Part shown: positions 5,225-20,291 of the stretch, piece by piece
How positions within the stretch are numbered: position 1 is the first letter of the stretch
Layout of the letters: each line of letters opens with the position of its first letter
Sequence record: KY608965.1
Reading direction: 5' to 3' (one strand)
Length of the DNA stretch: 64,000 bases
DNA from: Escherichia phage phiEC1
The notes under the pieces: model-generated
What the model saw: only the letters and a program-made list of their open reading frames with translations
Database searches by the model: none
What the model was told of the DNA's origin: nothing
Made by a program: the position numbers and the translations under genes

Positions 5225-5452
5225 TCATAACCATGTCACCTTTAAGCAATATTCTTCTACATGTTGTTTACGACCTTTCTTATCAATAAAGGTATATTCA
5301 ACGAATGTTCCGATGTAGTCTTTATCTACGTCATGTGGACTATTAATTGGACATTTAGTACGACAAATGCGTTCCCATTGACGAATAATTACTGCTTTAT
5401 TTTTAGGATCAAACGGATGTGGGTAATGTACTTTCATAGCAATGGTTCCCAA
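5225..5452 (-). CDS. Hypothetical protein
   Basis: 75 aa ORF. Confidence 0.4.
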   Translation of the reverse strand: MGTIAMKVHYPHPFDPKNKAVIIRQWERICRTKCPINSPHDVDKDYIGTFVEYTFIDKKGRKQHVEEYCLKVTWL

Positions 5453-5931
5453 TCAACAATCACAATTTCTAGTTTAGTGGAATACGTATCTAAAATTTCT
5501 TCGATGACATCCCAGTTTCCACCACCAATACCTGCACCAATTCTTGGCATATAAATTACAGGCTTTGTTATCTTATTCTTTCCGAATTTATTTAATTCTA
5601 TTATACAATTCATTAAAGCAGAGTACTCAAAATTAGGTCCCGGCTCAAACTGTGTATAAAGATTAAAGCAATAAGCTTTATGGGTCTTAAAATATTTTTC
5701 ATAAACCGAATAAGTCCCGAGTTTAGACTCGTCTCCGAATTCGGTTTGAAGTTTATCGGCTTCCAGAATTTTTGGATAAGCCTTTGCTAATTGACCTGCT
5801 ACACCAGCGCCCATTGTATGAAAACAATTACACCCATGAGCAATATTATTACCTTTAGAAAACAGGGCGACAATATCGCCCTTGATATAGTTTTTAATCA
5901 CTTGCTGCAAGTCCTCTAGTATAAGAGTCAA
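5434..5931 (-). CDS. Macro-domain protein (OARD1/TARG1-like ADP-ribose hydrolase family)
   Basis: 165 aa; IVALFSKGNNIAHGCNCFHTMGAGVAGQLAKAYP and later RIGAGIGGG resemble the TARG1-type macro-domain signature. Confidence 0.5.
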   Translation of the reverse strand: MTLILEDLQQVIKNYIKGDIVALFSKGNNIAHGCNCFHTMGAGVAGQLAKAYPKILEADKLQTEFGDESKLGTYSVYEKYFKTHKAYCFNLYTQFEPGPNFEYSALMNCIIELNKFGKNKITKPVIYMPRIGAGIGGGNWDVIEEILDTYSTKLEIVIVDWEPLL

Positions 5932-6241
5932 CTAGACGGTCCACCATAGAATTGCATGCTGCCTTATCTTTAGGTTCCGCCACCGAGCATTCTAATATTT
6001 GCCATTTTTTATAGTATCTTTTAATTAAAGTAGACGCCTTGAACCTACTAGACGCCCCATCTTTTTCTCCGTCTTTATACGCGTATAACAATTTTTGTGA
6101 AAAATCTACTTTACACTCTTGACTTTTACCACAGTAATCAGACGCCGTTCTGTTTGTATACTCCGTTACATCAGTATATGTAGTATTAGCAAGAGCGTTA
6201 AATGAAACCAAGCCAACTATTAAAGCCAACATTTTGGTCAT
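5894..6241 (-). CDS. Secreted protein, unknown function
   Basis: 115 aa; signal-peptide-like MTKMLALIVGLVSFNALA; four Cys. Confidence 0.45.
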   Translation of the reverse strand: MTKMLALIVGLVSFNALANTTYTDVTEYTNRTASDYCGKSQECKVDFSQKLLYAYKDGEKDGASSRFKASTLIKRYYKKWQILECSVAEPKDKAACNSMVDRLVDSYTRGLAASD

Positions 6242-7790: not shown

Positions 7791-8004
7791 AAGGAATTTC
7801 CTCATCGGTGGCAAGGTCATATTCGACCAATTGGATAGGCTCATTAATACCATATCCACGTACAGTGATATCAGTTGTCGGATAGCTTCCAGTAATATCA
7901 CCCATTCTAAATGCTTCAATGAATGATTGCTCGCCTGAGCAACTAAACCAGGCGGCAAAACATTTTAAAACATCTTCAGAACCTTCAATAATTATTTTAG
8001 CCAT
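7780..8004 (-). CDS. Hypothetical protein
   Basis: 74 aa ORF. Confidence 0.4.
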   Translation of the reverse strand: MAKIIIEGSEDVLKCFAAWFSCSGEQSFIEAFRMGDITGSYPTTDITVRGYGINEPIQLVEYDLATDEEIPYVD

Positions 8005-8366
8005 TATAGACTCTCAGTAAAGGTACGAGCGATAACGTCGCGCTGCTGTTCCGGAGTCAGAGAGTTAAAGCGAACTGCATAACCGGATACACGGACGGTC
8101 AGCTGTGGATATTTTTCCGGATGCTTAACTGCATCTTCCAGAGTTTCGCGACGCAGAACGTTAACGTTCAGGTGTTGACCACCTTCAATTTTAACTTTAG
8201 GTTGATGTTCAATTTCAATTTCACGGGCATTCAAACCGTAGAAAATTTCCGGGTCTACAATAGCGTCTTCTTTAAAAGTCTTAGAGACAATAATCCGGGC
8301 TTGAGTACCATCTTCAAAATAAATAGTGCCTTTATGTGCACCTTCAAGAATTTGATATGCTTTCAT
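8004..8366 (-). CDS. Autonomous glycyl radical cofactor (GrcA/YfiD-like)
   Basis: 120 aa; C-terminus [60 protein letters not shown] carries the RVSGY glycyl-radical motif. Confidence 0.8.
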
Positions 8367-20134: not shown

Positions 20135-20211
<77 letters not shown>

Positions 20212-20217
20212 AATATA

Positions 20218-20291
20218 TGACCCAGACCAGATTCGAACTGGTAACCTTTCCCTTATGAGGGGACTGCTGCTAACCATTGAGCTACAGGGCC
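20218..20291 (-). tRNA. tRNA with CAU anticodon (Met or Ile-type)
   Basis: Minus strand: anticodon loop CTCATAA, T-arm ACCAG-TTCGAAT-CTGGT, acceptor GGCCCTG/CTGGGTC with one mismatch; 6 nt from tRNA-Arg. Confidence 0.7.

Follow-up and report, generated by a model that had tools for sequence, protein, structure and literature searches.

Escherichia phage phiEC1 (KY608965.1) carries, on the minus strand of the 64,000-nucleotide stretch analysed here (the window), a gene that sequence and gene order identify as the syntenic orthologue of T4 tk.4 (adfM) and whose predicted product is a free-standing 155-residue macrodomain of the ALC1-like class (TARG1, DarG, SCO6735 and Poa1p). The protein is probably a DNA ADP-ribosyl-thymidine hydrolase with a glutamine-type site, which acts in the manner of an orphan antitoxin and protects the phage from DarTG2. 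The initial annotation had proposed an anti-defence role against DarT, and published genetics of the T4 orthologue, 83% identical and in the same slot, bear this out; the proposal was correct and is not novel, the anti-DarTG2 function being already known from a 2025 preprint. The gene is a well conserved copy of a known counter-defence gene, and its remaining interest is mechanistic: knowledge of the protein's substrate range would tell to what extent annotation as a macrodomain is a reliable guide to the defence that a phage evades.

The gene had been described as encoding 165 residues with two glycine-rich motifs, and its strand, which is minus, had been left unstated. A 165-codon open reading frame is indeed present on the minus strand at 5434..5931, and in its translation both motifs, HGCNCFHTMGAGVAGQLAKAYP and RIGAGIGGG, are found just as described. 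The length of 165 holds for the reading frame and not for the protein; it results from the mechanical choice of the first TTG (5931) after a stop codon. The true start is most likely the GTG at 5901–5899, which gives a coding sequence at 5434..5901 (minus strand) of 155 residues plus the stop codon TGA (5436–5434), with its translation checked; residue numbers (Q84, N25 and so on) refer to this 155-residue form. The GTG is preferred because of the alignment with the T4 start, the upstream stop codon in T4, the beginning of the PHROG match and the lengths of the homologues. The ATG of T4 tk.4 falls exactly on this GTG, as do the orthologue ATGs in a DNA alignment of six orthologues, and an in-frame TAG stop codon lies immediately upstream of the tk.4 ATG in T4. 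The PHROG match begins at residue 11 of the 165-residue frame, and the homologues are mostly ∼145–160 residues long with the N-terminus M-I-x-K-Y-I-K-G-D. The TTG at 5931 was rejected as a start in favour of the GTG on the T4 alignment, the T4 upstream TAG and the six-orthologue alignment. The ten in-frame codons that follow from this TTG (5902..5931, minus strand) lie inside the 3′ end of vs, are not conserved, fall outside the PHROG and Pfam matches and are probably not part of the protein. Reading of the sequence gives a Shine–Dalgarno-like AGAGGA (5912..5917, minus strand), which precedes the GTG start by 10 nt.

The gene is tightly packed between its neighbours. Upstream, the stop of vs (valyl-tRNA synthetase modifier, 115 residues; 5894..6241, minus strand) overlaps the start of the macrodomain gene by 8 nt, with GTGATTAA holding both the start and the stop codon. 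Downstream, the ATG of tk.3 (70 residues; 5225..5437, minus strand) overlaps the TGA of the macrodomain gene as ATGA. The same ATGA arrangement of the tk.4 stop and the tk.3 start is found in T4, and the overlap in phiEC1 suggests translational coupling of the two genes.

Residues 11–165 of the 165-residue frame align by BLASTP with all 155 residues of T4 Tk.4 (NP_049723) without gaps and with 129 of 155 identities (83%). The gene order regB–vs.1–vs–tk.4–tk.3–…–tk is that of T4, and the flanking genes include thymidine kinase and tk.1–tk.3. Full-length identity and the slot between vs and tk.3 thus place the gene in the T4 Tk.4/AdfM orthologous group. The T4 gene shares the overlapping start and stop codons as well, and its product retains all family-invariant residues. 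Of the codons that differ between the two genes, 48 are synonymous and 26 non-synonymous (dN/dS of 0.07), which indicates strong purifying selection on the phiEC1 gene. Among the 26 amino-acid differences, the phiEC1 protein has the family consensus glycine at position 127, whereas T4 Tk.4 has a lysine; the phiEC1 gene starts with GTG and the T4 gene with ATG. The best DNA matches are Mosigvirus phages (97.8% for ATK47), and the protein of phage ZQ3 is 99.4% identical; the phage is placed in the RB69/Mosigvirus group of T4-like phages. A tRNA search of the window gave two genes and no more, and an Rfam scan likewise gives only these two; we take two to be the number carried by RB69-type phages, as against eight in T4.

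The macro-domain fold suggested in the initial annotation was recovered by both profile and structure searches. The Pfam Macro profile (PF01661) matches the protein with 28.4 bits (cutoff of 22) and an E value of 1.7e-6, and PHROG 335 matches with an E value of 1.7e-66, values well outside what chance would give; the domain match of Tk.4 had already been reported in 2006 (PMC1524935). An AlphaFold model calculated with 110 homologues as input has a pLDDT of 95.7 and a pTM of 0.91. The predicted three-layer α/β/α arrangement and the two ADP-ribose-binding loops, together with the above-threshold profile match, are those of the Macro superfamily. A Foldseek search of the PDB with this model returned TARG1 first (2.4e-10), followed by Poa1p, DarG, Bt_1257 and SCO6735, and a sequence search of the PDB returned the same set of proteins. 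These Pfam, AlphaFold, Foldseek and PDB sequence results therefore assign the predicted protein to the ALC1-like class; macrodomains of the MacroD, viral and PARG types are more distant from it.

The active site was compared with those of TARG1 (its sequence verified against PDB entry 2LGR), two DarG macrodomains, PhiKZ gp104, Bt_1257 and SCO6735, using a family profile HMM and MAFFT, and conservation was evaluated over 110 homologues. The first ADP-ribose-binding loop comprises residues H22–G33 (HGCNCFHTMGAG; 5803..5838, minus strand) and is conserved in these homologues, with C26 and G33 invariant and H22, G23, C24, N25, M30 and G31 nearly invariant. N25 is aligned with N23 of PhiKZ gp104 (AdfM), and the N23A mutant of the latter shows less DNA de-ADP-ribosylation (Cell Rep 2026). 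The second glycine-rich (diphosphate-binding) loop, delineated by conservation and alignments, comprises residues P119–W130 (PRIGAGIGGGNW; 5512..5547, minus strand), with P119, I121, G122 and G124 invariant and G127, G128 and W130 nearly invariant; G124 corresponds to Gly128 of SCO6735 and G126 to Asp125 of TARG1. The end of the central β-strand carries N80-L-Y-T-Q84 (5650..5664, minus strand), on which the profile and MAFFT alignments agree; N80, Y82 and Q84, as well as D49, are invariant in the 110 homologues. In both alignments the position of Q84 is that of Lys84 of TARG1, Lys80 of DarG and Gln85 of SCO6735, with the strand end L-Y-T-Q84 aligned with L-I-T-K84 of TARG1 and F-P-T-K80 of DarG; that Q84 corresponds to the catalytic lysine is read from the two sequence/profile alignments and the predicted strand position and not from a structural overlay.

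With Q84 and G126 in these aligned positions, the phiEC1 protein lacks the defining catalytic residues of TARG1 and DarG. The likeness to TARG1 and DarG noted in the initial annotation thus holds at the level of the ALC1-like class and does not extend to strict membership of either family (K84, D125 and K80 are all missing). Human TARG1/OARD1 (C6orf130) is 24% identical and has in common the P-R-I-G-x-G loop and a threonine at position 83, but its catalytic Lys84–Asp125 dyad is replaced by Q84 and G126. The DarG macrodomains of Thermus aquaticus and M. tuberculosis (5M31/5M3I) are ∼21–24% identical, and their catalytic lysine (Lys80 in T. aquaticus) is likewise replaced (L-Y-T-Q as opposed to F-P-T-K). 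DarG also has two domains, of which the C-terminal one binds DarT, whereas the phiEC1 protein is a single domain of 155 residues. The NCBIfam DarG equivalog NF048014 scores 31.9 bits against a cutoff of 250 and covers only model positions 4–146 of 338, which represent the macrodomain part; the PADLOC DarG model matches with an E value of 9e-9. No darT toxin gene is adjacent, and tblastn with one query (P. aeruginosa DarT2) detected no DarT2 homologue in the window. Membership of the DarG or TARG1 family was therefore rejected on catalytic residues, domain architecture and the absent DarT neighbour. Yeast Poa1p (6LFQ), an ADP-ribose-1′′-phosphate phosphatase and a eukaryotic housekeeping enzyme of tRNA splicing, has T-S where the phiEC1 protein has T-Q.

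The glutamine points instead to a different branch of the class. Streptomyces coelicolor SCO6735 and Bacteroides Bt_1257 are 22–30% identical to the phiEC1 protein and have a glutamine (Gln85 in SCO6735) at the catalytic position, with which Q84 is aligned in both. We assign the protein, from the alignments, to this glutamine-type branch of the ALC1-like macrodomains. SCO6735 strips DarT-modified thymidine of ADP-ribose faster than DarG or TARG1, is inactive on guanine adducts, acts also on Glu/Asp-linked protein ADP-ribose and is inactivated by the Q85A substitution (PMC9411070). Its authors propose that an activated water molecule effects catalysis while the glutamine positions the distal ribose, and link the high DNA activity to an extended ‘mobile loop’ (PMC9411070). 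As SCO6735 works with Gln85, loss of the lysine is no argument against DNA de-ADP-ribosylation. The resemblance to SCO6735 and Bt_1257 is not complete, however: these proteins have 5–6 extra residues after the glutamine (a loop ∼5 residues longer than in TARG1/DarG), whereas the loop of the phiEC1 protein is of TARG1/DarG length, and Lys34 and Lys89 of SCO6735 are absent (A32 and about G88, respectively).

The function of the orthologue is known from T4 genetics. When a T4 transposon library was grown on a DarTG2-expressing host, tk.4 was the single significant hit, and a clean tk.4 knockout was DarTG2-sensitive; the gene was named adfM (anti-DarT factor Macrodomain), and removal of ADP-ribose from DNA was proposed without biochemistry (bioRxiv 10.1101/2025.11.20.689424). 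These data are genetic, come from a preprint that used special conditions (M9 glucose at 30 °C) and concern T4 and not phiEC1 (bioRxiv 10.1101/2025.11.20.689424). DarTG1 is countered separately in T4 by the NADAR protein AdfN (PMC11825919). Our own analysis establishes the fold, class, orthology, conserved residues and purifying selection of the phiEC1 protein; that the T4-type protein hydrolyses DNA-linked ADP-ribose, and does so by a glutamine mechanism, we infer. On infection of a DarTG2 host, released DarT2 would put ADP-ribose on the thymidines of single-stranded phage DNA and so block its replication. The cytosine modification of T-even phages would leave thymidine unprotected. The phage macrodomain would use its two glycine-rich loops to bind the adduct and would hydrolyse the thymidine–ribose bond to restore normal DNA, and would thus serve as a phage-carried orphan antitoxin. 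The lysine route of TARG1 and DarG would be impossible for the protein, as it lacks the lysine; catalysis would probably be of the SCO6735 type, in which Q84 would position the distal ribose and an activated water molecule.

Several comparisons count against this reading. The nearest biochemically characterized relative, the Adpp of Vibrio phage Gary, is a small-molecule phosphatase and not a DNA hydrolase; the catalytic lysine of DarG/TARG1 is absent, as is the extended mobile loop of the SCO6735 type; and the similarity to PhiKZ AdfM, the one phage macrodomain shown to de-ADP-ribosylate DNA, is marginal. Protection could also come mainly from binding and blocking DarT2, or from shielding of the adduct, in place of hydrolysis. 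The catalytically dead SCO6735 (Q85A), DarG (K80A) and TARG1 (K84A) mutants still inhibit DarT in vitro, SCO6735 most of all (PMC9411070), and the T4 study used no catalytic mutant (bioRxiv 10.1101/2025.11.20.689424). Full-length DarG, however, binds its toxin through a separate C-terminal domain (PMC11825919) that is absent from the 155-residue protein, and all residues of the ADP-ribose-binding and catalytic positions are invariant in relatives without an adjacent DarT, from phages and bacteria alike, which argues for selection on enzymatic activity. We consider protection without hydrolysis quite improbable.

Two further alternatives concern other ADP-ribose substrates. The initial annotation had also proposed regulation of phage-driven ADP-ribosylation, in which the protein would erase or tune the modification of proteins by the phage's own Alt, ModA and ModB. 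SCO6735 and TARG1 do remove ADP-ribose from proteins (PMC9411070). The alt, modA and modB genes are present in the lineage, according to the annotation of ATK47. Alt, ModA and ModB are, however, arginine-specific, whereas this class of macrodomain acts on thymidine and Glu/Asp linkages; in addition, homologues occur in many phage groups and bacteria, and the T4 screen singled out tk.4, its one significant hit, specifically on the DarTG2 host. Such self-regulation is therefore extremely unlikely. Degradation of small immune signals derived from ADP-ribose, such as the cyclic isomers used by Thoeris, or removal of ADP-ribose from RNA is scarcely more credible as the main function, even though a comparative-genomics survey proposed low-molecular-weight ADP-ribose derivatives as the targets of most phage Macro domains: T4 has tk.4 and yet CmdTAC, an ADP-ribosyltransferase system that acts on mRNA, restricts it strongly, and the HIDEN-SEQ screen tied tk.4 only to DarTG2.

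The main competing explanation is that the principal task of the protein is that of an ADP-ribose-1′′-phosphate phosphatase of the Poa1p/Adpp type, which would yield plain ADP-ribose from the product of either RES-type NAD+ breakdown or side reactions in RNA repair. T4 tk.4 is annotated as ‘phosphatase; contains A1pp phosphatase motif’, and its relatives are similarly annotated. Among relatives of proven enzymatic activity, Gary Adpp (KNV71_gp137), at 38% identity (E value of 1e-23), is the closest, and it turns ADP-ribose-1′′-phosphate into ADP-ribose in vitro. Both proteins have the motifs H-x-C-N-C, M-G-x-G, N-x-Y-x-Q and P-x-I-G-x-G-x-G-G-x-W, although the loop after the glutamine is ∼7 residues longer in Adpp. 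By this conversion Adpp, the phosphatase of the NARP1-AP pathway, enables NARP1 to rebuild NAD+ after attack by aRES (RES-domain), a defence that it overcomes together with Adps and Namat (preprint 10.64898/2026.01.28.702374). It thus acts within a three-gene NAD+-rebuilding operon, located between Adps and Namat, whereas the phiEC1 gene lies between vs and tk.3. The homologue of a Vibrio phage group is likewise found between genes resembling those for PRPP synthetase and nicotinamide phosphoribosyltransferase. No Adps or Namat homologue, and hence no Adps–Adpp–Namat operon, was detected in the window or in 100 kb of the closest genome, ATK47, outside it (bases 1–50 000 and 120 021–170 020), and a role in NAD+ reconstitution as for the Vibrio Adpp was rejected on this ground. 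Among Escherichia phages, only 178 records match Adps, and those sampled are 86–147 kb in size and not T4-sized. The only phenotype of T4 tk.4 mutants in the preprint is lost DarTG2 resistance (bioRxiv 10.1101/2025.11.20.689424). To our knowledge, the T4 RNA-repair route (Pnkp and RNA ligase) yields no ADP-ribose-1′′-phosphate, which also speaks against a phosphatase function. We thus regard phosphatase activity as an unlikely main function, but as a side activity it could possibly coexist with the DNA de-ADP-ribosylation that we favour.

The relation between AdfM proteins is less simple than their shared name implies. PhiKZ gp104, also named AdfM, is a phage-encoded free-standing macrodomain that counters DarTG2; it de-ADP-ribosylates DNA in vitro and is imported into the phage nucleus (Cell Rep 2026). 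It has the loop 1 asparagine in common with the phiEC1 protein (N23 and N25, respectively), but it is a close relative of DarG (E value of 9e-25 to M. tuberculosis DarG, 5M3I) that keeps the lysine of F-P-T-K, and it is barely alignable with the phiEC1 protein (BLASTP E value of 6e-4 over 23 residues). As gp104 is DarG-like and the phiEC1 protein is not, the name AdfM covers two separate macrodomain lineages directed against the same toxin. It is conceivable, though doubtful, that T4-type AdfM is more than a borrowed DarG and is a member of a distinct family of glutamine-type macrodomains, found in phages and bacteria and including Adpp, in which one small site serves two NAD+-based arms races: against DarTG2, by removal of thymidine-linked ADP-ribose from DNA, and against RES-type NADases, by dephosphorylation of ADP-ribose-1′′-phosphate. 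If so, the family would consist of bifunctional proteins or would change between DNA and small-molecule substrates by very few substitutions, and the name AdfM, as used for T4 Tk.4 and PhiKZ gp104, would conceal that macrodomains were recruited twice, independently, to counter one toxin.

Homologues are encoded in 2839 of 50 697 phage records, and 1.84 billion cluster representatives, searched with a profile, gave 1215 matches at E ≤ 1e-30 and 8937 at E ≤ 1e-10. A scan of one genome per species identified 245 bacterial relatives with roughly 35–45% identity, in Rhodobacterales, Verrucomicrobiota, Hymenobacter, Desulfobacterales and other groups. The N-x-Y-T-Q motif is present in 61 of 80 bacterial relatives by a simple motif search. 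Clustering of the neighbours at 80 bacterial loci gave no real partner in more than 11 loci, only lineage-specific housekeeping genes; one cluster present in 32 loci looks like spurious antisense open reading frames. Within 4 kb of the 80 relatives, tblastn with one DarT2 query, by which distant DarT forms could be missed, gave nothing with an E value below 1. With no conserved partner and no DarT2, the family appears to be mostly free-standing like SCO6735 and not part of a toxin–antitoxin pair; an origin by co-option of a toxin–antitoxin system, with DarT beside the bacterial relatives, was rejected on the same observations at these 80 loci (one query).

Promoter-like sites near the gene are not in excess (12 found compared with 14.7 expected in shuffled sequence). 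A consensus scan located a terminator-like hairpin inside codons 7–13 (5864..5882, minus strand), formed by AGGGCGAT-ATT-GTCGCCCT and followed by GTTTTCT, which folds at about −13 kcal/mol (z of −2.5). The hairpin is present in T4, ime09 and fPS-65 (the record of which annotates a terminator), is absent from STP4-a and LilPanda, and does not extend beyond Tequatrovirus and Mosigvirus; stretches of unchanged codons just as long are seen in other parts of the gene. Given this restricted spread and the comparable codon runs, the hairpin is unproven as a conserved regulatory element and its significance is uncertain. The GTG start has a practical consequence: because of it, the tk.4 orthologue is missing from or truncated in the annotation of the closest genomes, and automated searches for anti-defence genes will count too few copies of it.

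The name AdfM (anti-DarT factor Macrodomain) has been given independently in the literature to two non-orthologous macrodomains, Tk.4 of phage T4, which is the T4 orthologue of the protein described here, and gp104 of phage PhiKZ. T4 Tk.4 is of the glutamine type and is closest to Bt_1257, Poa1p and Adpp, the ADP-ribose-1''-phosphate phosphatase of Vibrio phage Gary, whereas PhiKZ gp104 is of the lysine type, matches DarG with an E value of 9e-25 and can barely be aligned with the Tk.4-type protein of the window (5434-5901). In Vibrio phages VF16 (L088 2632-5649; coordinates with an L number are counted within the fetched locus) and Gary (L089 1629-4659), homologues of the window protein are flanked by Adps-like and Namat-like genes. 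This arrangement is the NARP1-AP NAD+-rebuilding operon, near which RNA ligase and phosphoesterase genes are also located, and the family of the window protein therefore serves a small-molecule pathway in other phages.

The bacterial relatives, sampled as 80 loci (L004-L083), share 35-45% identity and come from Ruegeria, Verrucomicrobiota, Hymenobacter, Desulfobacterales and others. They are free-standing genes with unrelated neighbourhoods, and most of them contain the N-x-Y-T-Q motif. A search with one DarT2 query found a homologue within 4 kb of the gene in none of the 80 loci. One of these loci, L004, is a contig of 167 kb that carries the label 'bacterium' but could itself represent the genome of a phage.

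The genus Tequatrovirus has two strongly divergent alleles of tk.4 in circulation, represented by ime09 (L084 401-880) and T4 (L001 3923-4390), with an overall identity of 58%. Despite this divergence, the two are nearly identical over about the first 66 nt of tk.4 and over the end of vs, the gene upstream, which suggests a recombination boundary within this anti-defence gene.

A terminator-like hairpin (5864-5882, minus strand) with an 8-bp stem, a GTTTTCT tail and a stability of about -13 kcal/mol falls within codons 7-13 of the macro gene, directly past the end of vs. The same 20 nt are found unchanged in T4, ime09 and fPS-65, and the fPS-65 record has a terminator annotated at this position; the hairpin is not present in Gelderlandvirus STP4-a or Jiaodavirus LilPanda. 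The hairpin could attenuate read-through from vs. Alternatively, it could merely reflect conserved codons, since residues 145-153 of the same gene form a comparable stretch of unchanged codons.

Because the macro gene begins with GTG, the annotations of the closest relatives either omit it or give it in truncated form. The ORF is intact in ATK47 (L002 2906-3403), in a slot without any annotated CDS, and the CDS annotated in vB_EcoM-ZQ3 (L003 1288-1668) begins only at the internal Met30, with loss of the H-G-C-N-C portion of the active site.

The wider neighbourhood of the macro gene includes a 120-residue ORF (8004-8366, minus strand) with the terminal glycyl-radical motif RVSGYAVRF, which is the already known T4 gene vs.6, a GrcA-like spare glycyl-radical domain. 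The 64-kb window contains just two tRNA genes, Arg-TCT and Met-CAT (20135-20291, minus strand); as T4 has eight at the corresponding place, this fits an RB69/Mosigvirus-type genome.
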